Below, piece by piece: positions 4,680-18,950 of a stretch of DNA of 23,417 nucleotides (the first letter of the stretch is position 1; each line of letters opens with the position of its first letter). The notes under the pieces were generated by a model. It was not told where the DNA came from. It saw only the letters and a program-made list of their open reading frames with translations, and ran no database searches. A program made the translations under genes and the position numbers. Source of the stretch: Casimicrobiaceae bacterium (GTDB taxonomy: Bacteria > Pseudomonadota > Gammaproteobacteria > Burkholderiales > Casimicrobiaceae); NCBI GenBank assembly GCA_036825435.1, contig DAISYG010000025.1, forward strand, positions 1 through 23,417, written 5' to 3'.

Positions 4680-5960
4680 ATGAACCCCACCACCATGCAG
4701 ATTATCGCCACGACGCTTTTTGGTCTGGCGGTCATCCATACATTCTCATCCAGTTTCATTGCGGGTCTGGGACATCGCTTCCCGGTGCACGCGGGAATGT
4801 GGCATCTGCTGGGTGAGGTCGAGGTTGTTTTCGGCCTGTGGGCAGGCGTCATGATGGTGGTGATGTTCATTCACCTCGGCAACAAGGAAGCGCTTGCCTA
4901 TATCGAAGGGCGTAACTTCACCGAACCGCTGTTCGTGTTCTCGATCATGGTGGTGGCGGCGAGCCGTCCGATCACGCGGTCGGTGCGAGACGTAGTGCGC
5001 TGGCTGGCGAGAAAATTATCAAAACCGCTACCATTGGAAGAATCGCTAATCCTTTATTTTTTGACAATGTCGGTGATTCCGCTGTTCGGTTCATTCATCA
5101 CCGAGCCTGCGGCGATGACTCTGGCGGCATTGATGTTGCGCGACACATTTTTATCGCAAGCGATGCCCGCGCGCGTGAAATACCTCACGCTCGGCGTATT
5201 GTTTGTGAATATTTCCATCGGCGGCGCGTTAACGCCTTACGCAGCACCACCCATTCTGATGGTCGCCGGTCAGTGGAATTGGGATTTGACCTTCATGATC
5301 ACCACATTCGGCTGGCGTTCTCTGATTGCCGTCATTCTGAACGCGTTGATCGTCAGCTACATTTGCCGCAAAGATATTCCGCGCCACGCAACCATCGTGA
5401 TCTCCAAGGAAACGCACATTCCGCTGATCATCACCATCATCCATTTCATTTTTCTCGCCGCGATTGTTGTCTTTGCGCATCATCCGGTTATTTTCATTCC
5501 GCTCCTGCTGTTCTTTCTGGGTCTCGCCGCCGCCTACCCGCAGTTTCAGAACCGCATGATGATGCTACGCGAGAGCATGCTCGTCGCGTTCTTCCTCGGT
5601 GGCTTGGTCGTGCTTGGCGGCATGCAGGCTTGGTGGCTTCAGGATGTTCTTGGCGGCATGTCACCACAGGCATTATTTTGGGGCGCGACGGCTTTGACCG
5701 CGATCACCGACAATGCGGCGCTGACGTATCTCGGCTCATTGGTGGAAGGCACCGACGCCGCGTTCAAATATTCGCTGGTGTCCGGCGCGATTGTCGGTGG
5801 TGGTTTGACCGTCATCGCCAACGCGCCCAACCCTGCCGGTATCGCCATTCTGAAAAACCGTTTCGAAGACGATTCTGTCAATCCGTTAAAACTTTTCCTG
5901 GCCGCACTTGGTCCCACATTATTAGCCGCCATCATGTTTCTCCTGCCGTTCGGGCGGTAA
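4680..5960 (+). CDS. Polytopic inner-membrane transport protein (about 11-12 predicted TM segments). I assign it to no family; it may be an ion-transporter/permease.
   Basis: 426 aa and extremely hydrophobic throughout, with conserved-looking segments TEPAAMTLAALML and AITDNAALTYLGSLVEGT. SD AAGG upstream. The numerous overlapping ORFs in other frames are artefacts. Confidence 0.7.
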   Translation: MNPTTMQIIATTLFGLAVIHTFSSSFIAGLGHRFPVHAGMWHLLGEVEVVFGLWAGVMMVVMFIHLGNKEALAYIEGRNFTEPLFVFSIMVVAASRPITRSVRDVVRWLARKLSKPLPLEESLILYFLTMSVIPLFGSFITEPAAMTLAALMLRDTFLSQAMPARVKYLTLGVLFVNISIGGALTPYAAPPILMVAGQWNWDLTFMITTFGWRSLIAVILNALIVSYICRKDIPRHATIVISKETHIPLIITIIHFIFLAAIVVFAHHPVIFIPLLLFFLGLAAAYPQFQNRMMMLRESMLVAFFLGGLVVLGGMQAWWLQDVLGGMSPQALFWGATALTAITDNAALTYLGSLVEGTDAAFKYSLVSGAIVGGGLTVIANAPNPAGIAILKNRFEDDSVNPLKLFLAALGPTLLAAIMFLLPFGR

Positions 5961-5984
5961 ACTTTTATTGGTTTGAACATCGAC

Positions 5985-8270
5985 ATGTCCAACGAAAATT
6001 TCCGTAAAGCTGCGCTTTTCTACCACCGTCAACCCACCGCCGGAAAAATTGAAGTCGTGCCCAGTAAAGCGCTGGTCACACAACGCGATCTGGCGCTCGC
6101 GTATACGCCCGGTGTCGCTGCCGCGTGCGAAGAAATCGTGCGTGCGCCGGAAGAAGCGCGTACGCTCACCGCTCGCGGCAACCTGATCGCCGTGGTGACC
6201 AACGGCACCGCCGTGCTCGGCTTGGGTAATATCGGCCCGCTCGCGGGTAAGCCTGTGATGGAAGGCAAAGCCGTGTTGTTCAAAAACTTCGCCGGTGTCG
6301 ATTGTTTCGATCTGGAACTGGACGAACCCGACCCGCAAAAAATGGTGGACATGATCTGCGCGATGGAGCCGACCTTCGGCGGCATCAATCTGGAAGACAT
6401 CAAAGCGCCGGAGTGTTTCTACATCGAAGAGCAATGCCGTCAACGGATGAAGATCCCCGTTTTTCACGACGATCAGCATGGCACGGCGATTATCGTCGGC
6501 GCTGCAATCATCAACGGTTTGCGCGTGGTGGAAAAAGATATCAAGGATGTGCGCATCGTCTGTTCGGGCGCCGGTGCGGCGGGCTTGGCGTGTCTGAAAA
6601 TGCTTGAACTGTTGGGTGCAAAAAAAGAAAATATTTGGTTGTGTGATATTCACGGTATCGTGTATGAAGGACGCACTGTCGACATGAATCCGCTGCGCGA
6701 ACATTATGCGCAGAAAACCGATAAACGCACGTTGCAGGAAGCGCTGGATGGCGCAGATGTATTCCTCGGTTTATCGGCGGCGCGCGTCGTGCAAAAGGAA
6801 TGGTTGCCGACGATGGCGGAAAAACCGCTCGTGTTTGCGTTGGCGAATCCCGAGCCGGAAATTCTTCCCGAATTGGTGAAGGAAGTGCGCCCCGATGCGG
6901 TGATCGCCACTGGGCGTTCCGATTACCCCAATCAAGTCAACAACGTTTTGTGTTTTCCGTTCATTTTCCGTGGTGCGCTCGACGTCGGCGCCACGCAAAT
7001 CAACGATGAAATGAAAATTGCGTCGGTGTACGCCATTGCCGACTTGGCGATGGCCGAGCAATCCGACATCGTTGAAGCGGCATACAACATCGAAGACCTC
7101 AATTTCGGTCCCGAATATTTGATTCCCAAGCCGTTCGATCCGCGCTTGATTCTGCAAATTGCGCCAGCAGTCGCCAAGGCTGCGATGGATACCGGCGTCG
7201 CCACACATCCGATTACCGACTTCGAAGCGTATCAAGAGAAACTGCTCGCGTTTGTTTATCACTCCGGCTTCATGATGAAGCCGGTGTTTGACGCAGCACG
7301 CGCAACACGTCGTCGCATCGTGTTGGCGGAAGGCGAAGAAGAACGCATGTTGCGCGCCGCGCAAATCATCCGTGACGACAAGATGTGCGACCTGACGCTG
7401 ATCGGTCGCACCGAAGTGATCGAACGTCGCATCAAACGCCTCGGCTTGCGCATTCGTCCCGGCAAAGACTTCGAAATCATCGATATTGAAAAAGACAAGC
7501 GCTTCGATGAAATCTGCGAAGAATATTATTCATTGACGCAACGCAAAGGCGTCACACCCGCCTATGCCAAACTGGAAGTGCGTCGTCGCCCGACGCTGAT
7601 CGGCTCAATGGCAATCCGACGCGGCGAAGCAGACGGCATGGTCTGCGGGCTGGTCACCGAATACATGCGTCATCTGCGCTATATTGATCAGATCATTGGC
7701 GCCAGACCCGGCGTCAAAACCTACGCGGCAATGAACGCCGTGATGCTGAAAAACCAAACCCTGTTCATCACCGACACCTACATCAACCGCGAACCAAGCG
7801 CCGAAGAGTTGGCGGAAATCACGTTGATGGCGGCCGAAGAAGTGCGCAGTTTCGGCATCGAACCCAAAGTCGCGCTGCTCTCGCATTCAAATTTCGGCAC
7901 CAGCGATTGGCCAACGGCGAAAAAAATGCGCGACACGTTGACGCTGGTGCAACAACTCGCGCCCGATCTCGAAATCGAAGGCGAAATTCAGGGCGATGCC
8001 GCGCTCAGCGAAGAAGTGCGCGCACGCGTTTTCCCCAACGCCCGTATCTCGGGTGCGGCCAATTTGTTGGTGATGCCCGGCATCGACTCTGCCAACATTT
8101 CATTCAATCTGTTGAAAATTACCGGTAGCAGTAATGTCACGATTGGTCCGGTTCTGCTCGGCGTCAGCCGCCCCATTCATATCCTGACGCCGTCCGCCAC
8201 GGTGCGCCGCATTGTCAACATGGCGGCACTGGCCGCCGCACAGGCTAATCTTCACGCAGAATTCAATTGA
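5985..8270 (+). CDS. maeB: NADP-dependent malic enzyme (malate dehydrogenase, oxaloacetate-decarboxylating). The malic-enzyme domain is fused to a C-terminal phosphotransacetylase-like domain.
   Basis: Collinear with E. coli MaeB over the full length. Examples: [76 protein letters not shown]. The ORF track starts at TTG 5973, but the ATG at 5985 ([11 protein letters not shown]) aligns with the MaeB N-terminus. Confidence 0.95.
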
Positions 8271-8437
8271 TGCGTACGACGTGTGACGCGAATCACTCGC
8301 AAAACCATGCTCTGGACGATGTTACAGCCAATCACAAACCCCGCTTCCATTGTGGCGCGCGTTGCCTGACAATAAGAACTCCGTAGATTGTTAGAGACAG
8401 CCTTGTTGTCTCAGTGTATTTTTTTGGTTGCGACACA

Positions 8438-9346
8438 ATGACTTCTTTCGCGCTTTATCTTTTCATCGTTGTGGCGGTATTGATGACGGTTCTGGCACTG
8501 GCTTGGATCGGTCCCCGTCTTTTTTCCGCACCGGAGCTCGAACCTTCCGTCGATGAAAACACGTCCAACCTGCTCGTCTATCAAGACGAACTTGCCCAAC
8601 TCGATCGTGAGTTTTCCCTAGGCAATATTTCCCAAAAAGATTTTGAAGAAGCGCGCACGGAATTAAGCAAACGGATGCTCTCTGAAGTGGATGATAAAGA
8701 CGACGTGAAATCGCGCGCGCCGCTGTCGCATTGTCTTTCCTCTGCTACTCAAAAAATCGGGCTGGTGGTGATGGGGCTGGTGCCGGTGCTCGCCGCGGGT
8801 TTGTATCTGCATATCGGCAACATCCAGATGTTTACGGTCATGAAAGATGAATCCGGCGGCGGTCAAACCATCTCGCAACAACTGCGCGCACATCTTGCTG
8901 CCAATCCCGAAGACGCGCGCGCTTGGGTGTTTCTCGGTCGCGCCGAAATGGAAGCCAATCATTTCAACGAAGCAACGACCGCGTTCGAAAAAGCCATTGC
9001 CGCATCCGGCAAAGTAGCGAACGACGCAACCGTTCTTTGCGAATTGGCCGAAGCGATCGGTATGCGTCAAGGTGGCACGTTCCGCGGTCGTCCACATGAG
9101 CTCGTCAAACAAGCGCTGGAATTGGCGCCAGGCAACCCGGTCGCTCTGGAAATGGCGGGCAGTGCTGCTTACGAATCGCACGATTACAAAACTGCTGCGC
9201 GCCATTGGCGGGCTTTGCGCGACATGCTTGCGCCTGATTCCCGTTCCTACCAAGAGCTGAGCGTTGCCATTGCTCGCGCCGAAGCGGAAATCGAAGAAGA
9301 AGCGGACGCACCAACCAGCACGGCTGCCGTAAAACTGACTCCGTAG
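8438..9346 (+). CDS. CcmI/CycH-like TPR membrane protein: an N-terminal TM anchor followed by TPR repeats.
   Basis: TM segment ALYLFIVVAVLMTVLALAWIGP. This is followed by the CcmI-characteristic LVYQDELAQLDREFSLGNISQKDFEEARTELSKRML segment and TPR repeats (ARAWVFLGRAEMEANHFNEATTAFEKAI). The ATG at 8438 is preferred over the GTG at 8414 given by the ORF track, because the maeB terminator hairpin overlaps 8414. Confidence 0.6.
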   Translation: MTSFALYLFIVVAVLMTVLALAWIGPRLFSAPELEPSVDENTSNLLVYQDELAQLDREFSLGNISQKDFEEARTELSKRMLSEVDDKDDVKSRAPLSHCLSSATQKIGLVVMGLVPVLAAGLYLHIGNIQMFTVMKDESGGGQTISQQLRAHLAANPEDARAWVFLGRAEMEANHFNEATTAFEKAIAASGKVANDATVLCELAEAIGMRQGGTFRGRPHELVKQALELAPGNPVALEMAGSAAYESHDYKTAARHWRALRDMLAPDSRSYQELSVAIARAEAEIEEEADAPTSTAAVKLTP

Positions 9347-12500: not shown

Positions 12501-13364
12501 TTATTGTAGTCCATCCGAATATAAATGTACGGTTTCCCGCAAAAAGTGATCCAGTTCCTCGACGTTCTTGTGCTCCATTTTCTGCTCAAAATCATTTGAA
12601 GCAAGGCGATTCAGTTCCTGCTCGATAAATGCATGGATACCCGGCCAGCGCTCACTGTATTCCGCTTCACCGGAACGCATTTTAATATCCAGCAGACGAT
12701 TGATTTCATCAAGCAGCGCCGGATCGTCCAGCGTACCAACAGCAAGATCGGCAAAGCGCATCGGCGGCTGGCCTTGACGGGTTTCAATCCAGCGTACCGC
12801 CAACAGCGGGCGCAAAACATACAGATATTTTTTCAGGCGCACCTGATCATCTTGCAAATAGCCACGAAAATTGCTTTTCGCCATCGTCAGATAATGGTGG
12901 TAGCCCTTCAACGATGAAAAATGCGTCTGCGCCAATACGCGCAACCGCCGAACCGTTTCCGCTTCTTCGCGGTAAACAACCGGCGAATCGAGCCATTCCA
13001 GCAACACCGGATTGGATCGCAACAATAACTGCAACGTCTTGCGCAGTTCCCAACCATTGATATCAAGCGCATCATCAATGGGCAATTCGATGACATCGCG
13101 CTGAGGTTCAACCGACAGATACCATGGCAAACGAGGCACATAGATGAAGCGTACATCGTAATCGCTGTCCGGTGATGCAAAGCCCCAGGCACGGCTTCCC
13201 GATTCACAGGCATAAAGGATCGTGACCTCGTACTTTCGTTCGATGCCCTGCAATGATTGCACGATGGCAGCACGTACGTTTTCATCAATGGGATGATTGC
13301 TTGATATTTTCGGGTTCATTTGCCTGACCGTTTCTTCATTTGTCTTCTTCACCCTTTCACACAC
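12501..13364 (-). CDS. Pol-beta-superfamily nucleotidyltransferase, RtcB-associated. It is the last gene of the rtc operon.
   Basis: 287 aa. Nucleotidyltransferase motif YACESGSRAWGFASPDSDYDVRF (GS...DxD). The start overlaps the rtcB 3' end by 16 nt (GTG at 13364). An alternative ATG at 13319 would give 272 aa. Confidence 0.75.
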   Translation of the reverse strand: MCERVKKTNEETVRQMNPKISSNHPIDENVRAAIVQSLQGIERKYEVTILYACESGSRAWGFASPDSDYDVRFIYVPRLPWYLSVEPQRDVIELPIDDALDINGWELRKTLQLLLRSNPVLLEWLDSPVVYREEAETVRRLRVLAQTHFSSLKGYHHYLTMAKSNFRGYLQDDQVRLKKYLYVLRPLLAVRWIETRQGQPPMRFADLAVGTLDDPALLDEINRLLDIKMRSGEAEYSERWPGIHAFIEQELNRLASNDFEQKMEHKNVEELDHFLRETVHLYSDGLQ

Positions 13365-14581
13365 ACCACCTGCCGCAACGTATGCACCACTTCGACCAGC
13401 GAATGCTGCGCATGCATCACGGCGTCAATATCCTTGTAGGCCATCGGAATCTCGTCGATCACATCGCTGTCCTTACGGCACTCCACATGCGCCGTCGCAC
13501 GAACCTGATCGTCCACATTGAAACGACGCTTGGCCTCGTTGCGGCTCATCACCCGCCCTGCACCATGGCTGCACGAACAGAATGATTCCTCATTACCAAG
13601 ACCACGAACAATATAACTTTTGGCGCCCATGGATCCGGGGATGATACCCAACTGCCCCTTGTATGCCGACACCGCACCTTTGCGGGTAACCCAGATGTTC
13701 TCACCGAAGTGCGTTTCGCGCTGTACGTAGTTGTGGTGGCAGTTTACCGCCCCCCTATCGGTGGCAAACGGTTTGGCGATTGATGCCCGTACTGCGCTGA
13801 CCACGTTCGCCATCATCGCATCACGGTTCCGACGCGCATAATCCTGCGCCCAACCCACTGCCTCAATGTAATCATCGAAGTACTCGCTGCCTTCTTCAAA
13901 ATACGCAAGATCACGATCGGGCAGATGGATCATGTGTTTTTCCATGTCCTTTCTCGCCAGATCGATAAACAGCGTACCGATGGCATTGCCCACACCGCGC
14001 GAACCCGAATGCAGCATCAACCAGACACGCTCGCTCTCATCCAGACATACCTCGATAAAATGGTTGCCCGTTCCCAGCGTTCCCAGGTGTTTATGGTTGT
14101 TCGTGTTTTTCAGGCACGGGTATTTTTCGGTGATGCGCTCGAACCCGGGCAGCAACGCCGTCCACATCGCGTCAACGTTCTGCGGCGTATCGTGCCACGA
14201 CCCTTTATCACGCTTGCCCCTTGATACTTCACGCCCATGCGGTACCGCTTTTTCAATCGCGCAACGCAATGCATACAGGCTATCCGGGAGGTCGGAAGCC
14301 GTCAGCGTGGTGCGCGTTGCCATCATGCCACAACCGATATCCACACCGACTGCCGCCGGGATGATCGCAGCCTGCGTCGGGATCACACTGCCGATGGTCG
14401 AGCCCTTACCGAGATGCACGTCCGGCATGACCGCCAGGTGATGGAAGATGAATGGCATCTGTGCCGTCGCCAGCAATTGTTTGCGCGCGCCATCCTCCAC
14501 CGGCACACCCTGCGTCCACATTTTGATTGCCGCGCTGCCTTCCTGTTCAATAATGTTGTAGTCCATTTTCACTTCATTCAT
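13349..14581 (-). CDS. rtcB: RNA 3'-phosphate/2',3'-cyclic phosphate ligase RtcB (RNA-splicing ligase)
   Basis: 410 aa. The N-terminus MNEVKMDYNIIEQEGSAAIKMWTQGVPVEDGARKQLLATAQMPFIFHHLAVMPDVHLGKGSTIGSVIPT is collinear with E. coli RtcB. Metal-binding NCHHNY and the GMP-histidine motif CSHGAGR are present. The start overlaps the upstream Zn-ribbon gene by 8 nt. Confidence 0.95.
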   Translation of the reverse strand: MNEVKMDYNIIEQEGSAAIKMWTQGVPVEDGARKQLLATAQMPFIFHHLAVMPDVHLGKGSTIGSVIPTQAAIIPAAVGVDIGCGMMATRTTLTASDLPDSLYALRCAIEKAVPHGREVSRGKRDKGSWHDTPQNVDAMWTALLPGFERITEKYPCLKNTNNHKHLGTLGTGNHFIEVCLDESERVWLMLHSGSRGVGNAIGTLFIDLARKDMEKHMIHLPDRDLAYFEEGSEYFDDYIEAVGWAQDYARRNRDAMMANVVSAVRASIAKPFATDRGAVNCHHNYVQRETHFGENIWVTRKGAVSAYKGQLGIIPGSMGAKSYIVRGLGNEESFCSCSHGAGRVMSRNEAKRRFNVDDQVRATAHVECRKDSDVIDEIPMAYKDIDAVMHAQHSLVEVVHTLRQVVCVKG

Positions 14582-14939
14582 TGATTATCTTTCTTTCCAT
14601 CTTTTTCATTTTTCCTGCTTCACTGATTCTACGTGCCTCGGCTTTCCGTTGTCGTTCCTTTGCACGACAAGCCCGGCAACGCACTGCGATCGAGTCAGGA
14701 TTTCCACGCATTTGCTCATACCAGCGCTTCCGCCGTGCGGCATACCAGATTTCCTCTTTTCCACAATCCTTGCAAGTGAACGGAAAATCTTCATAATAGC
14801 CTTCGGGAAAACGCATCGACAGAACCCATGCATCCCAGGGATCCAATCCTTCGGTATTTACCGGTACCCGCTGATGATTTTTCTCCAGAAAACTTTTCTT
14901 TCTTTGCTTTCTGGCGGATACTTTTTTCTTGATACTCAT
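14574..14939 (-). CDS. Small basic zinc-ribbon protein (two CxxC pairs), translationally coupled to rtcB.
   Basis: 121 aa from ATG 14939 (MSIKKK...), with a GGGAG SD 5 nt upstream. The ORF track starts at 14957. Motifs FTCKDCGKEE and VRCRACRAKE form a C4 zinc ribbon. The termini are lysine/arginine-rich. I recognise no family. Confidence 0.6.
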   Translation of the reverse strand: MSIKKKVSARKQRKKSFLEKNHQRVPVNTEGLDPWDAWVLSMRFPEGYYEDFPFTCKDCGKEEIWYAARRKRWYEQMRGNPDSIAVRCRACRAKERQRKAEARRISEAGKMKKMERKIINE

Positions 14940-15074
14940 CATCGCTCCCAAAATCACATGTCAGAGAACAGGCATCAGACATCAGTAAAAGTATCTCTTC
15001 GCTCTGACTGAAAAACTTCTATCTCCGATCAAGCCCAAAAGTTTCCTTGTTCTCCGCAACATCCAAAATATCGG

Positions 15075-15220
15075 CGTCATTCCCGCGCAGGCGGGAATCC
15101 AGCCCACATTGATCAATAAAGATCATCCCGCCATTTCGGATTACCTTTTCGATAGCGCACAATTTCCACCGACCGTTTCCACAATCGTTTTTCTGGATTC
15201 CCGCCTGCGCGGGAATGACG
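15075..15220. repeat. Small MITE-like element. Perfect 26-bp terminal inverted repeats, each containing a dRS3-like ATTCCC-N8-GGGAAT hairpin, flank a 94-bp core.
   Basis: 15075-15100 CGTCATTCCCGCGCAGGCGGGAATCC is the exact reverse complement of 15195-15220. Each arm is itself a hairpin (CCCGC-gcag-GCGGG). It lies in the 340-nt gap between the SPFH gene and the Zn-ribbon gene. The architecture resembles neisserial dRS3/NIME repeats. Confidence 0.55.
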
Positions 15221-15299
15221 CCACAATGTTGGAGAAGCCTTCTGCTCTTCGCTCTCTGTCATCTGTAGCAGGGGAGGCAAATTCCTCCCCTACCATCCT

Positions 15300-16550
15300 T
15301 TAACCAGCCTTCAGCGACACCAGACCATTCAACACCTGATCCAGGCCACCCACCACCGAAATGCGGTCGATCCGTTCGGCCACGCGCTCCAGGGTTTCCA
15401 GTTCCTTGAGGCGCAACGCCACCGGGTTGTCTTCCATCACCTTGGCGGTATTGAGCAGCGAACGTGTTGCGTTGGTTTCTTCACGACGGCGGATCACGTT
15501 GGCTTCCGCCACTTTCTGCGCTTCCACCACGCGGGCAAGAATATCCTTCATCTCGCCCGGCAGCACGATATCGCGCACGCCGAGGCTCATCACTTCAAGA
15601 CCAAAACCTTCCAGTTTGGTTTTCAAATGTGCGCTGACCATCTCATCAATACTCTGCTTGTTTTCAAGAATCGCATCGAGCGTACGCGTACCCACTGCCG
15701 CACGCAAACCGAACTGCAATTCGCGGTACAAGTATTCAACCGGCTTGTTGACCTGCGCAAACGCCAGTGCCACATCGGTAAAGCGCCAGTTGGCCACCAG
15801 CGTCAGACGCAAACCAACGCGATCCTTGGTCAGGATTTCCTGACCGCTGACCTCCATCGCCTGCAAACGCGTATCCACCAGTTCAAGTTGCACCTCACGG
15901 TTGAAGCGCCAGAATGCACGCAAGCCGGGCGACAACAATTGCTCCACCTTGCCGTCGATGCGCAACACACCAACATGGTACGCGGGCACCTGCGCGACCA
16001 ACACGCCGTCCAGACCGATCACCGCACGGTTTTTCAGGTTGGCCGCGTTGAGCTGCTTCGCCACCTTTTCGGGCAATTCGGTATGGTCTTCCAGCTTGAA
16101 ACGCTCCAAACGGTGCTGCTTCAAACCTTTCCAGACATAGTGCCGTGCGCCCGGTGCCAACACCTCAACAAGGATATCGTTCTCAAAACGCAAACCTGTT
16201 TCATTTTCTTCCAGCACCATGGTGATGAAATGTTCTTCCGCAACCTGCGGATCATTCATCAGCAAATATTCCACCACATGATTTGCATGCATCACGCTGT
16301 CCTGTACGCAATTGCCCATCGTCCGTCTTTTCAGCGGATCGAACAGCCAATAGCGGCCAGGCGCAAGAATCCGTTCAAAATCGTCATCACGAAACAAAGT
16401 GCCCTTTTCGTTGTGCTTCACAACATATCTTTTGAAAAACAACATATTCATTCTCCCATCAATCGCCAACCTGTCGCCGGTTCGACGGACTTCCTTCTCG
16501 GCACCTGCGAGGAGGCTCATCACAAAATCCATGTTCATCTGGCAGCGCAC
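15300..16550 (-). CDS. SPFH/band-7 (stomatin/HflKC-like) domain protein. It has an uncharacterised N-terminal domain of about 170 aa and no TM anchor. It is the first protein gene of the RtcR-controlled operon.
   Basis: 416 aa. The C-terminal half carries the SPFH signature: VLRIDGKVEQLLSPGLRAFWRF...ILTKDRVGLRLTLVANWR...LGVRDIVLPGEMKDILARVVEAQKVAEANVIRRREETNATRSLLNTAKVM. I see no hydrophobic helix. The start is uncertain, with several in-frame Met in the first 11 codons and no clear SD. Confidence 0.75.
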   Translation of the reverse strand: MRCQMNMDFVMSLLAGAEKEVRRTGDRLAIDGRMNMLFFKRYVVKHNEKGTLFRDDDFERILAPGRYWLFDPLKRRTMGNCVQDSVMHANHVVEYLLMNDPQVAEEHFITMVLEENETGLRFENDILVEVLAPGARHYVWKGLKQHRLERFKLEDHTELPEKVAKQLNAANLKNRAVIGLDGVLVAQVPAYHVGVLRIDGKVEQLLSPGLRAFWRFNREVQLELVDTRLQAMEVSGQEILTKDRVGLRLTLVANWRFTDVALAFAQVNKPVEYLYRELQFGLRAAVGTRTLDAILENKQSIDEMVSAHLKTKLEGFGLEVMSLGVRDIVLPGEMKDILARVVEAQKVAEANVIRRREETNATRSLLNTAKVMEDNPVALRLKELETLERVAERIDRISVVGGLDQVLNGLVSLKAG

Positions 16551-16698
16551 GGTGTTGCTGTGCTTGCGAGGTTCACACCGACTTCATCATTCGCTTCGTC
16601 ACCGATGCAGATTGGGCGTCGGCCAAACCGGCGGCGGCGCTTGCGCGATCCGCAGTCGGCAGGTATTACATTTATAAAAGTGTCATCAAGAATGACTT

Positions 16699-16789
16699 GC
16701 TTTGGAGCGGGACTTGAACCCGCGACAGACCGATTCCTCGTCGGTTACTCTATCCAACTGAGCTATCCAAATACGGGATTCGAACCCAT
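16699..16789 (-). ncRNA. tRNA-like element (tRNA mimic or pseudo-tRNA) in the leader of the rtc operon. A 74-nt cloverleaf is preceded by an extra T-arm-like hairpin.
   Basis: Minus strand: ATTTGGA-TA-GCTC-AGTTGGATA-GAGT-A-ACCGA-CGAGGAA-TCGGT-CTGTC-GCGGG-TTCAAGT-CCCGC-TCCAAAG-C. The D-arm, T-arm, U8, G18G19 and C48 are canonical. The anticodon loop has G33 and anticodon AGG. The acceptor stem has an A1xG72 mismatch. No CCA is encoded. Immediately 5' of it (16773-16789) lies ATGGGTTCGAATCCCGT, a second T-arm-like hairpin. Confidence 0.5.
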
Positions 16790-16874
16790 GCCTTAACGGT
16801 TTCCAATAGACAAGCATCAAACAGCAGCGGCATACGCACAGACAACAGCCGAAGTCCGGTTCGTGCGCACCGGT

Positions 16875-17156
16875 GGGGCTAGAGCGTGCCGACACGAGTT
16901 TTGCTATTGTCATTGATCGGCACGGCGGGCCAGACAAGGCGGAAAACGCAACGCATGGTGGTTCCCATGGGCAAGTTTTCCAACGCAGTATGGCGCGCTG
17001 TGCCGTTCAACCCGAAGGGCTGGCACTGGTAAACAGCCATTCTTCGTCATTCGTCGTTTATTTGGATTAACCAAACTGCTCTCCTCATTCCTCGACTAGC
17101 CGCTTACCAGTACCAGTGGCAACAACAAAACCCGTGTCGGCACGCTCTAGAACCCC
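16875..17156. repeat. Long-range 22-24-bp inverted repeat (GGGGCTAGAGCGTGCCGACACG / CGTGTCGGCACGCTCTAGAACCCC) enclosing about 235 nt of non-coding sequence in the rtc operon leader.
   Basis: Bases 16875-16898 pair with 17133-17156, with 18 contiguous identical base pairs plus a flanking GGGG/CCCC. This would form a long closing stem in the minus-strand transcript. The only ORF inside (16873..17070 +, 65 aa) is on the wrong strand and has no support. Confidence 0.5.
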
Positions 17157-17200: not shown

Positions 17201-17216
17201 TGCCAGTTCTGTGCCA
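17201..17216 (-). promoter_or_regulatory. Sigma54 (RpoN) promoter driving the rtc operon leftwards, presumably activated by RtcR.
   Basis: The minus strand reads TTGGCACAGAACTGGCAAT. The -24 element TGGCAC and the -12 element TGGCA, separated by 5 nt, match the consensus TGGCAC-N5-TTGCA at 9 of 10 core positions. It lies about 145 nt upstream of the divergent rtcR start, with an AT-rich region in between. Confidence 0.6.
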
Positions 17217-17360
17217 ATAAATCGCTGACGCTGAAAATAACTGCAAGTCTTTGTATTAACAGATATAAAATTTTTTCATGAGTTTCTGCTATCAAATTTC
17301 CCCATTCATTTTTCTATTTTTGCTAGAATATTTGATATATTTTTATATAAAATGATAATC

Positions 17361-18950
17361 ATGAAGAAGACGGTGGTCATCGGTTTTCTCGGCACGCAGC
17401 TCGACAATGGCGGACGCGGCAGCGACCGTTGGAAAAAATGGCGCCCCAGCATCGCCATCTGCCAGCAGGAAAATCTGCCCGTACATCGGATTGAGTTGAT
17501 TCACGATGCACGCAGCCGCAGTCTGGCGGGGCGCGTCGCCGAGGACATCGTTTCGGTATCGCCACACACCGAGGTGCGGCACATCGAAAAACAATTACGC
17601 GACCCCTGGGACTTTGAAGAGGTCTATACGCTGTTGCTTGATCTGGCGCGCTCGTACCCGTTCGACACCGAAAACGAAAACTATCTGATTCACATCACCA
17701 CCGGCACGCACGTCGCGCAGATCTGCTGGTATCTGCTCACCGAAGCACATTATTTTCCAGCGCAACTGTTGCAGGCATCGCCACCACTCAACCGTAAAGG
17801 CGTGCTCGACCGTGCAGGCACGCATGCGATTATTGATCTGGATCTTTCCCGCTACGACAAAATCGCACAGCGTTTTCGCGTCGAGCAAGCCGATACCGTC
17901 AGCCGCCTCAAGTCCGGCATTGCCACACGCAACCCCGCGTTCAATACCATGATCGAACGCATTGAGCGGGTGGCCGGACGTTCGCGCGCGCCGATGCTGC
18001 TGGTCGGCCCCACCGGAGCGGGCAAATCATTCCTCGCGCAACGCGTTTATGAATTGAAACGTGAGCGACAACAACTCAAAGGCCGCTTCGTCGAAGTCAA
18101 CTGTGCCACGCTGCGCGGAGATGCTGCGATGTCGGCATTGTTCGGCCACGTCAAAGGCGCGTTTACCGGCGCACAGTCGGAACGCGCCGGGTTGCTGCGC
18201 TCGGCGCACGGCGGCGTGCTGTTCCTCGACGAAATCGCCGAACTGGGACAGGACGAACAGGCGATGCTGCTCAAGGCCATTGAGGAAAAACACTTTCTTC
18301 CGTTCGGTGGCGACAACGAGGTCAGCAGCGATTTCCAACTCATCGCCGGTACGCACCGCGATTTGAGGCAGCGCGTTCGTGAAGGACTTTTCCGCGAAGA
18401 TTTGTACGCCCGCATCAACCTGTGGACGTTCACCCTGCCCGGTCTTGCCAAACGCACCGAAGATATCGAGCCGAACCTGGATTACGAACTTGAGCGTTAC
18501 GCATGCGATTACGGTGTACAGGTTCGCTTCAATGTCGAAGCGCGCCGCCATTACCTGACATTCGCCTGCTCCACCGAAGCGCAATGGCCCGGCAACTTTC
18601 GTGAATTGACTTCCAGCGTTACCCGCATGGCAACGCTATCGACGGGTGGGCGCATCACCGAGCAAGATGTTCTCGATGAAATCGCCCGTTTGCGCGAAAG
18701 CTGGCACGAGCCTGCCCGTGCGGATCAGGTTGCCGTCGTGCTGGGCGATGCTGCACAGACCATCGACCTGTTTGACCGCTGCCAGCTCAATACCGTACTG
18801 CGGGTTTGCCACGACAGCCGAACCCTGTCAGAAGCCGGACGCACCTTGTTCGCTGCGTCGCGTCAACACAAAAAACAAACCAATGACGCCGACCGCCTGC
18901 GCAAATATCTGCTGCGCTTCGGACTGGATTGGGAGGCGGTACATCGGTGA
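17361..18950 (+). CDS. rtcR: RtcR: sigma54-dependent transcriptional activator with an N-terminal CARF domain, an AAA+ domain and a C-terminal HTH.
   Basis: The N-terminus MKKTVVIGFLGTQLDNGGRGSDRWKKWRPSIAICQQ...YLIHITTGTHVAQICWYLL is collinear with E. coli RtcR. Walker A GPTGAGKS. Sigma54-interaction motif GAFTGA. The ORF track starts at 17352 (MIIMKK...). 17361 matches the E. coli start and gives 529 aa. Confidence 0.9.
   Translation: MKKTVVIGFLGTQLDNGGRGSDRWKKWRPSIAICQQENLPVHRIELIHDARSRSLAGRVAEDIVSVSPHTEVRHIEKQLRDPWDFEEVYTLLLDLARSYPFDTENENYLIHITTGTHVAQICWYLLTEAHYFPAQLLQASPPLNRKGVLDRAGTHAIIDLDLSRYDKIAQRFRVEQADTVSRLKSGIATRNPAFNTMIERIERVAGRSRAPMLLVGPTGAGKSFLAQRVYELKRERQQLKGRFVEVNCATLRGDAAMSALFGHVKGAFTGAQSERAGLLRSAHGGVLFLDEIAELGQDEQAMLLKAIEEKHFLPFGGDNEVSSDFQLIAGTHRDLRQRVREGLFREDLYARINLWTFTLPGLAKRTEDIEPNLDYELERYACDYGVQVRFNVEARRHYLTFACSTEAQWPGNFRELTSSVTRMATLSTGGRITEQDVLDEIARLRESWHEPARADQVAVVLGDAAQTIDLFDRCQLNTVLRVCHDSRTLSEAGRTLFAASRQHKKQTNDADRLRKYLLRFGLDWEAVHR

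Follow-up and report, generated by a model that had tools for sequence, protein, structure and literature searches.

An RlaP-family nucleotidyltransferase gene closing a predicted RtcR-linked RNA-repair operon with a tRNA-like leader in a Casimicrobiaceae bacterium

Introduction

The RlaP family of nucleotidyltransferases was named in 2016 by Burroughs and Aravind on the basis of comparative genomics and, as later accounts of that work describe, was predicted to restore nucleotides to RNAs trimmed after endonucleolytic cleavage. Biochemical data have since been reported in a single, not yet peer-reviewed preprint on the orthologues of Pseudomonas fluorescens (PfRlaP) and P. aeruginosa (PaRlaP) (Carruthers, Fatma and Huang, bioRxiv December 2025; PMC12776372). 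Both enzymes add one or two NMPs to the 3'-OH of RNA, an end group that they require; RNA is their only substrate, DNA and protein being inactive. They show little NTP specificity, accepting dATP as well, work better with Mn2+ or Co2+ than with Mg2+, and, when given an annealed tRNA mimic, extend the 3' end at its nicked anticodon loop in preference to the one at its acceptor. Pre-treatment with RlaP partly rescued the aminoacylation of a ligated tRNA missing one nucleotide. The crystal structure of PfRlaP consists of an N-terminal nucleotidyltransferase domain and a C-terminal helical domain, the last helix of which packs onto the N-domain. The same preprint draws attention to a mismatch in end chemistry, in that the product of RlaP carries a 3'-OH whereas RtcB needs a 3'-P or a 2',3'>P end, and notes that members of the family also occur with 5'-phosphate ligases (PMC12776372).

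The regulator of RtcR-controlled RNA-repair operons has been studied in Salmonella, where binding of 5' tRNA halves with a terminal 2',3'-cyclic phosphate to the CARF domain of RtcR switches it on. In one class of such operons, a Band-7 gene is preceded by a tRNA-like non-coding RNA, the b7a-tRNA, which a 2018 preprint describes as experimentally unvalidated (bioRxiv 10.1101/312249). Here we analyse a locus of this class in a Casimicrobiaceae bacterium, in which an ORF directly downstream of rtcB had been predicted, from the sequence alone, to encode an RNA-end-modifying nucleotidyltransferase.

Results

The ORF downstream of rtcB encodes an RlaP-family protein

The window, meaning the whole stretch of DNA that was analysed, comprises 23,417 nucleotides of contig DAISYG010000025.1 (assembly GCA_036825435.1). 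On its minus strand, positions 12501..13364 form an open frame of 287 codons from a GTG, directly downstream of the gene for the 3'-phosphate RNA ligase RtcB (13349..14581 on the same strand; full-length PF01139 match, E 1.4e-129). The original prediction of a Pol-beta nucleotidyltransferase beside rtcB, which proposed a search against the Pfam nucleotidyltransferase families, is borne out by that search: the protein matches PF10127 (RlaP; 'RNA repair pathway DNA polymerase beta family') over profile positions 2-248 of 249, with E 7.2e-98 and 327.7 bits against a cutoff of 23. This full-length match, together with thousands of homologues in the databases (60-70% identity for the closest), shows the ORF to be a real gene, far beyond chance. 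Two phage profiles annotated as nucleotidyltransferase, PHROG 14344 (E 1.6e-92) and PHROG 388 (E 3.4e-12), are matched as well. By its profile matches the protein is an ordinary member of the RlaP family, and RlaP is the RtcB-linked Pol-beta nucleotidyltransferase of comparative genomics to which the prediction had alluded.

PF10127 was the sole match in Pfam, with no PolyA_pol/CCA domain, and NCBIfam has no RlaP model. The prediction had named best profile matches to antibiotic nucleotidyltransferases, together with a lack of conserved linkage to rtcB, as the outcome that would speak against it. Searches of Pfam and NCBIfam (E up to 0.01) found no aminoglycoside or other antibiotic nucleotidyltransferase family, PADLOC gave no significant match to such an enzyme, and rtcB is linked to the gene in 52 of the 80 loci described below. 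A marginal PADLOC match to PDC-S09 (E 7.8e-4), in which no stretch passed alone, was disregarded.

Which start codon is used bears on the relation to rtcB. Initiation at GTG 13364 gives 287 aa and a 16-nt overlap with rtcB, whereas the in-frame ATG 13319 gives 272 aa and leaves a 29-nt gap past the rtcB TGA (13351..13349). We favour the ATG because the N-termini of most of 19 aligned homologues lie within a few residues of it, 6-10 residues ahead of a conserved (S/A)HP motif; because public gene calls list precisely this 272-aa product (P0001), on three metagenomic contigs; and because in 52/52 orthologous loci the RlaP match begins beyond the end of the RtcB match, mostly by 2-130 nt. The homologue N-termini and the public gene call likewise make GTG 13364 the less likely start. 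Since neither codon is preceded by a well-spaced Shine-Dalgarno site, ATG 13319 is probable rather than proven, and the likeliest form of the gene is 12501..13319 on the minus strand. A length of about 270-290 aa had been predicted, a range that takes in both forms. The predicted overlap with the rtcB stop codon holds for the GTG but disappears with the likelier ATG, and is probably an artefact of choosing the longest ORF.

The Pol-beta active-site motif, ESGSRAWGFASPDSDYD, is encoded at 13155..13205 (minus strand; residues 54-70 of the 287-codon ORF). Its spacing, given originally as x9, is in fact x10: in the numbering of the 272-aa protein, used from here on, G41-S42 is followed by ten residues and then D53-Y-D55-V. 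In an alignment of 52 homologues the stretch A37-C-E-S-G-S-R-x-W-G-F-A-S-P-D-S-D-Y-D-V-R-F58 is invariant except at x (A44 here), as are D75, E78 and D86. The Pol-beta signature, hG[GS] followed after 9-13 residues by D-h-D-h and by a third conserved carboxylate, is therefore present in the window protein, and D86 is probably the third catalytic carboxylate.

By secondary structure, an AF2 model of the protein (pLDDT 91.4, pTM 0.88) is alpha/beta in its N-terminal half and helical in its C-terminal half, with the last helix at 253-269; this predicted architecture is consistent with that described for the PfRlaP crystal structure. Searching a copy of the PDB without the PfRlaP coordinates, the 272-aa sequence gave no match at E up to 0.01. 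The solved structures that best matched the model by fold were ANT(4')/kanamycin nucleotidyltransferase (E 2e-6, 12% identity), 3c18, Hailong HalB and AAD(9), with TM scores of 0.44-0.48, 9-16% identity and rmsd of 8-10 A; TUTases appeared only at E above 0.01. These remote matches reflect the common two-domain Pol-beta architecture.

Layout and control of the operon

Upstream of rtcB, and overlapping its start by 8 nt, lies a gene for a small treble-clef zinc-ribbon protein (zf_Tbcl; 14574..14957, minus strand; PF13451, E 3.5e-10), for which NCBIfam has no model; a zf_Tbcl gene has the same position in five related loci (L004, L028, L030, L042 and L054). The first coding gene on this strand encodes an SPFH/Band-7 protein (15300..16550; PF01145, E 6e-31). 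It is preceded by a structured leader in which a T-arm hairpin is followed by a tRNA-like cloverleaf (16689..16809, minus strand, the cloverleaf at 16699..16772), recognized by ARAGORN, Rfam and our covariance model R1. Divergent from these genes, on the plus strand, is rtcR (17352..18950), encoding a CARF-AAA+-HTH sigma-54 activator (PADLOC RtcR, E 1.9e-260; Pfam RtcR and Sigma54_activat on an identical contig). The same order is visible in an exact JGI metagenome contig and in a Rhodocyclaceae relative.

Between rtcR and the operon, a single match to the sigma-54 promoter pattern was found on the operon strand, TGGCACAGAACTGGCA at 17201..17216 (minus strand), which reads TGGCAC-N5-TGGCA from 17216 to 17201, with the -24 GG and -12 GC and one mismatch. 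Such patterns occur in the window as a whole no more often than by chance, so that position is the main argument for this promoter candidate. A divergent rtcR with a putative sigma-54 promoter is what RtcR-regulated rtc operons have. No internal promoter was found in a scan between rtcB and rlaP; past rlaP the same scan gave no convincing terminator on the minus strand, and a gene for an amino-acid permease follows in convergent orientation. RtcA was searched for within the window and gave no match. We conclude that the predicted operon consists of a sigma-54-like promoter, a tRNA-like leader RNA, and genes for SPFH/Band-7, zinc-ribbon, RtcB and RlaP proteins, with rlaP last.

The SPFH and zf_Tbcl genes are separated by a spacer (14958..15299) with a 41-bp inverted repeat (15062..15102 and 15193..15233) that contains a REP-like palindrome, ATTCCCGCGCAGGCGGGAAT, which we take to resemble the neisserial dRS3 repeat. 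Matches to the 41-bp repeat occur at unrelated positions in loci of Gallionella, Gallionellaceae, Lysobacter and Casimicrobium as well, and the repeat probably represents the insertion of a small repeat element into the operon.

Conservation of the linkage to rtcB and rtcR

Linkage was assessed in 80 species-representative loci, mainly from Betaproteobacteria and Gammaproteobacteria, whose RlaP orthologues share 50-67% identity with the window protein; the operon proteins were located by tblastn in flanks of about 8 kb. RtcB is encoded upstream of rlaP in 52/80 loci, and its identity in most related loci that carry it is 64-81%. RtcR lies near rlaP in 50/80, RtcA in 31/80 and SPFH in 30/80, the last always between rtcR and rtcB or rlaP. 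As RtcA is absent from 49/80 loci, an rtcA-less operon such as that in the window is a common variant.

RlaP-bearing rtc operons fall into three types. Besides the SPFH type there is an Rsr type, in which a gap of 2-2.5 kb between rtcR and rtcB encodes Rsr/Ro60 (TROVE and vWA_Ro60), and a plain rtcR-rtcB-rlaP type, found in 9/80 loci. Rsr/Ro60 genes were seen at L038:4722-6419, L046:3945-5498 and L011:3567-5168, and in L023, L027, L076 and L006. In several Rsr-type loci a weak tRNA-like match immediately precedes rtcB, as at L046:5894-6082 and L076:6598-6710; these matches are presumably Y RNAs of the YrlA type.

Five Enterobacterales loci (L055, L058, L064, L069 and L081; about 4800..8800 in each) have the order rtcR-SPFH-rlaP, with no rtcB within about 8 kb; judged by gene order, RlaP is kept there under RtcR control without the ligase. 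In a further 19/80 loci, the fetched flanks of about 8 kb encode none of the five rtc-linked proteins covered by the search. Because of these 19 loci and the five rtcR-SPFH-rlaP loci, RlaP is not strictly dependent on RtcB. The neighbours of rlaP in the rtc-less loci are heterogeneous, including Fic, RhuM, TOTE AEP-helicase and housekeeping genes. Conflict-system neighbours were recorded at L060:8884-11247 and L060:6989-8074, L066:6400-7461 and L049:6769-7917 (TOTE AEP-primase/helicase fusion, RhuM-family and Fic proteins). In the Rhodocyclaceae relative (L004), rlaP lies within an rtcB-rlaP-rtcA operon, flanked by two ORFs of 210 aa and 107 aa (5182-5814 and 6813-7136) that have no Pfam match and no match in any other fetched locus.

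The tRNA-like leader RNA

The operon leader is roughly 650 nt long and strongly structured (z = -5.9). Within it, ARAGORN and Rfam call a tRNA at 16699..16772 (46.5 bits), whose nominal identity is Pro-AGG and whose position 33 is a G; at a permissive threshold the tRNA model was the only Rfam match in the leader, with no YrlA or Y RNA match. The 3' end of the element is followed by AAG, CCA not being encoded. Alignment of 13 loci shows nearly invariant D- and T-arms and covariation in the anticodon and acceptor stems. Conservation does not extend to the anticodon loop, which is a GNRA tetraloop in Burkholderia loci and L068 and contains CAU in others. With an unconserved anticodon loop and no encoded CCA, the element is therefore a tRNA mimic rather than a decoding tRNA. 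Some 10 nt upstream of the tRNA-like module, 13/13 loci have a second conserved T-arm hairpin, and in L054 ARAGORN calls two tandem tRNAs; the second hairpin suggests tandem tRNA-like units.

Model R1, which describes the double module, scores 93 bits at the window leader. It exceeds 70 bits in 20 sources, this operon and 19 others (for example L004:1906-2030, L012:5122-5245, L054:4194-4314 and L068:4311-4432), in all 20 upstream of an SPFH gene and, wherever rtcR was located, between rtcR and SPFH. No locus without SPFH gave a match above 70 bits, and true tRNAs scored 57 bits or less. The SPFH gene of the window is thus preceded by a tRNA-like non-coding RNA, as in the Band-7/b7a-tRNA class, and this RNA is the b7a-tRNA of the literature.

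The window leader also contains a 282-nt element (about 16875..17156, minus strand) with a near-perfect closing stem of about 37 bp and two inner hairpins. It is missing from all related leaders, and displaces the tRNA-like module by about 265 nt. No other copy was found in the window or the fetched loci, nor did an exact-match scan of metagenome contigs find its arm; it may be a MITE-like insertion. In several betaproteobacterial leaders, minimum-free-energy folds show very long hairpins, with helices of 42-67 bp, between the tRNA-like module and the SPFH start (L012:5296-5458, L015:5345-5507, L028:4984-5136, L007:5363-5470 and L019:3950-4118). These could be processing sites or another structured RNA.

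Discussion

A probable fill-in enzyme of the Rtc response

We consider it highly probable, by sequence and by analogy with the Pseudomonas orthologues, that the gene encodes an RlaP-family, template-independent RNA 3'-terminal nucleotidyltransferase that stands last in an RtcR/sigma-54 RNA-repair operon and works by a proposed fill-in-then-seal route. This reading draws on the PF10127 match, the invariant motif, the AF2 model, the conserved gene order, the presence of RtcR with a sigma-54-like promoter, the 54% identity to a P. fluorescens orthologue sampled here and the biochemistry of the Pseudomonas orthologues. By analogy with Salmonella, tRNA damage would activate RtcR and so lead to sigma-54-dependent transcription of the operon. 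RlaP, with two metal ions held by D53, D55 and a third carboxylate, probably D86, would then extend a broken RNA at its 3'-OH by one or two NMPs, taken from any NTP, with a preference for the 5' half of a nicked anticodon loop, and the added nucleotides would replace those removed by trimming ribotoxins or exonucleases. A ligase would finally seal the break, although the 3'-OH of the RlaP product, set against the 3'-phosphate requirement of RtcB, stands against simple sealing by RtcB. The absence of rtcA from the window, the 19/80 orthologues without rtc genes and the five Enterobacterales loci without rtcB also count against a simple repair reading.

The original prediction had envisaged nucleotide addition, CCA-like or as a tag, to the 3' ends of repaired RNAs, and had called the activity untested. 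Nucleotide addition to RNA 3' ends is what the two Pseudomonas orthologues do, at one or two NMPs and not in a CCA-like manner; the target proposed for them is the damaged end before ligation rather than the repaired one, and the preprint of December 2025 has overtaken the statement about activity (PMC12776372).

Three other readings of the gene have less support than RNA repair by RlaP. One is that the substrate is the operon's own leader RNA, that is the b7a-tRNA or, in Rsr-type operons, YrlA, whose 3' end RlaP would complete or tag, thereby maturing a decoy or cofactor RNA instead of mending cellular RNAs. In favour of this, a conserved tRNA-like module is co-transcribed upstream, here and in the 19 other sources detected by model R1, and its 3' end continues with AAG instead of CCA; weak tRNA-like matches occur just upstream of rtcB in Rsr-type RlaP operons; and RlaP labelled full-length tRNA-sized RNAs in total E. 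coli RNA (PMC12776372). Nevertheless, many RlaP operons have neither SPFH nor Rsr, 9/80 being plain and 19/80 lacking rtc-linked proteins, so that the function of the family cannot depend on tRNA-like or YrlA RNAs, and the in vitro preference for the nicked anticodon over the acceptor 3' end points the same way (PMC12776372). We regard a leader-RNA substrate as improbable. We think it just as improbable that RlaP marks broken RNAs with short untemplated 3' tails, diverting fragments from RtcB to degradation or signalling and so serving the Rtc response in quality control or feedback. RtcB cannot use the 3'-OH of the RlaP product, and with so little NTP specificity most additions would be of the wrong nucleotide (PMC12776372); moreover, RtcR senses only fragments with cyclic-phosphate ends, so altered ends could tune induction. 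Yet an enzyme that needs a 3'-OH is unable to extend the 2',3'>P or 3'-P ends used by RtcB and RtcR, RlaP treatment raised the aminoacylation of a repaired tRNA lacking one nucleotide, and the 5'-phosphate ligases found with the family have a chemistry that fits fill-in followed by sealing (PMC12776372).

That the protein is an aminoglycoside or lincosamide nucleotidyltransferase, or an oligonucleotide synthase of defence signalling, which merely happens to lie beside rtcB, seems to us very improbable indeed. ANT(4')/kanamycin nucleotidyltransferase, 3c18, Hailong HalB and AAD(9) are its best fold matches, and some orthologues adjoin conflict-system genes (TOTE AEP-helicase, RhuM, Fic). These fold matches are remote, however, profile searches in Pfam and NCBIfam returned no ANT family, the PADLOC PDC-S09 match was marginal, the linkage to rtcB and rtcR is conserved, and the orthologues labelled RNA only. 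An antibiotic-nucleotidyltransferase identity was rejected on the profile searches and the remoteness of the fold similarity.

A further reading concerns Band-7-type operons such as this one, which has no rtcA. In these, RlaP, SPFH and the tandem tRNA-like RNA might form a unit able to work without RtcB, in which RlaP would act on the RNA or be guided by it, as a pseudo-template or scaffold choosing the restored nucleotide; or another route might make ligatable 3'-phosphate ends. The five Enterobacterales rtcR-SPFH-rlaP loci speak for such a unit, which we hold to be unlikely, if a shade less so than a leader-RNA substrate.

Comparison with known systems

The family, its in vitro activity and the operon architecture of RtcR, b7a-tRNA, Band-7, RtcB and RlaP are all already known. 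What interest remains lies in the end chemistry of RlaP and RtcB and in the Band-7-associated tRNA-like RNA: the locus illustrates the puzzle of a nucleotidyltransferase that produces 3'-OH ends alongside a ligase that requires 3'-phosphate. The comparative set supplies concrete test loci, namely SPFH-type, Rsr-type, plain and rtcB-less rtcR-SPFH-rlaP loci and tRNA mimics with tetraloop anticodon loops.

Among more distant relatives, the CCA-adding enzyme, poly(A) polymerase and TUTases share with RlaP a Pol-beta core and untemplated addition of NMPs to an RNA 3'-OH, but additions by the RlaP orthologues stop at 1-2 nt and show little base specificity, and the C-terminal domain is different. 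ANT(4') (PDB 1kny, 6un8) has the two-domain Pol-beta nucleotidyltransferase fold as well; it differs from RlaP in its sequence (12% identity, TM 0.44-0.48, no profile match), in acting on a small molecule and in its lack of any genomic link with RNA repair. Phage T4 NrdC.11 and other phage RlaP-family nucleotidyltransferases belong to the same Pfam family (PMC12776372), as the PHROG 14344 and 388 matches of the window protein recall; NrdC.11 falls into similarity cluster 5, as against 1a for the Pseudomonas enzymes (PMC12776372), and has a phage context without an rtc operon.

Much closer are PfRlaP and PaRlaP, with which the window protein shares PF10127, the G-S...D-x-D motif and the position of rlaP directly downstream of rtcB under RtcR; its predicted architecture is consistent with their nucleotidyltransferase and helical domains. 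A P. fluorescens orthologue sampled here (L038), whose gene lies between rtcB and rtcA, is 54% identical to the window protein over the full length. In the Pseudomonas operons rlaP sits between rtcB and rtcA, whereas the window operon has no rtcA, ends with rlaP and opens with a tRNA-like leader followed by genes for the SPFH/Band-7 and zinc-ribbon proteins. RtcR control, RtcB, Band-7 and an upstream tRNA-like RNA are shared with the described RtcB-Band-7-b7a-tRNA and Rsr-YrlA-RtcB repair operons (Burroughs and Aravind 2016, as summarized in bioRxiv 10.1101/312249; Chen et al. 2014; Hughes et al. 2020). Sister loci swap SPFH and the tRNA-like RNA for Rsr/Ro60 and a weaker tRNA-like match. From the described Band-7 and Rsr operons the window differs in nothing of substance; it adds the 282-nt long-stem element to its leader, and its tRNA-like module has the second conserved T-arm hairpin ahead of it.
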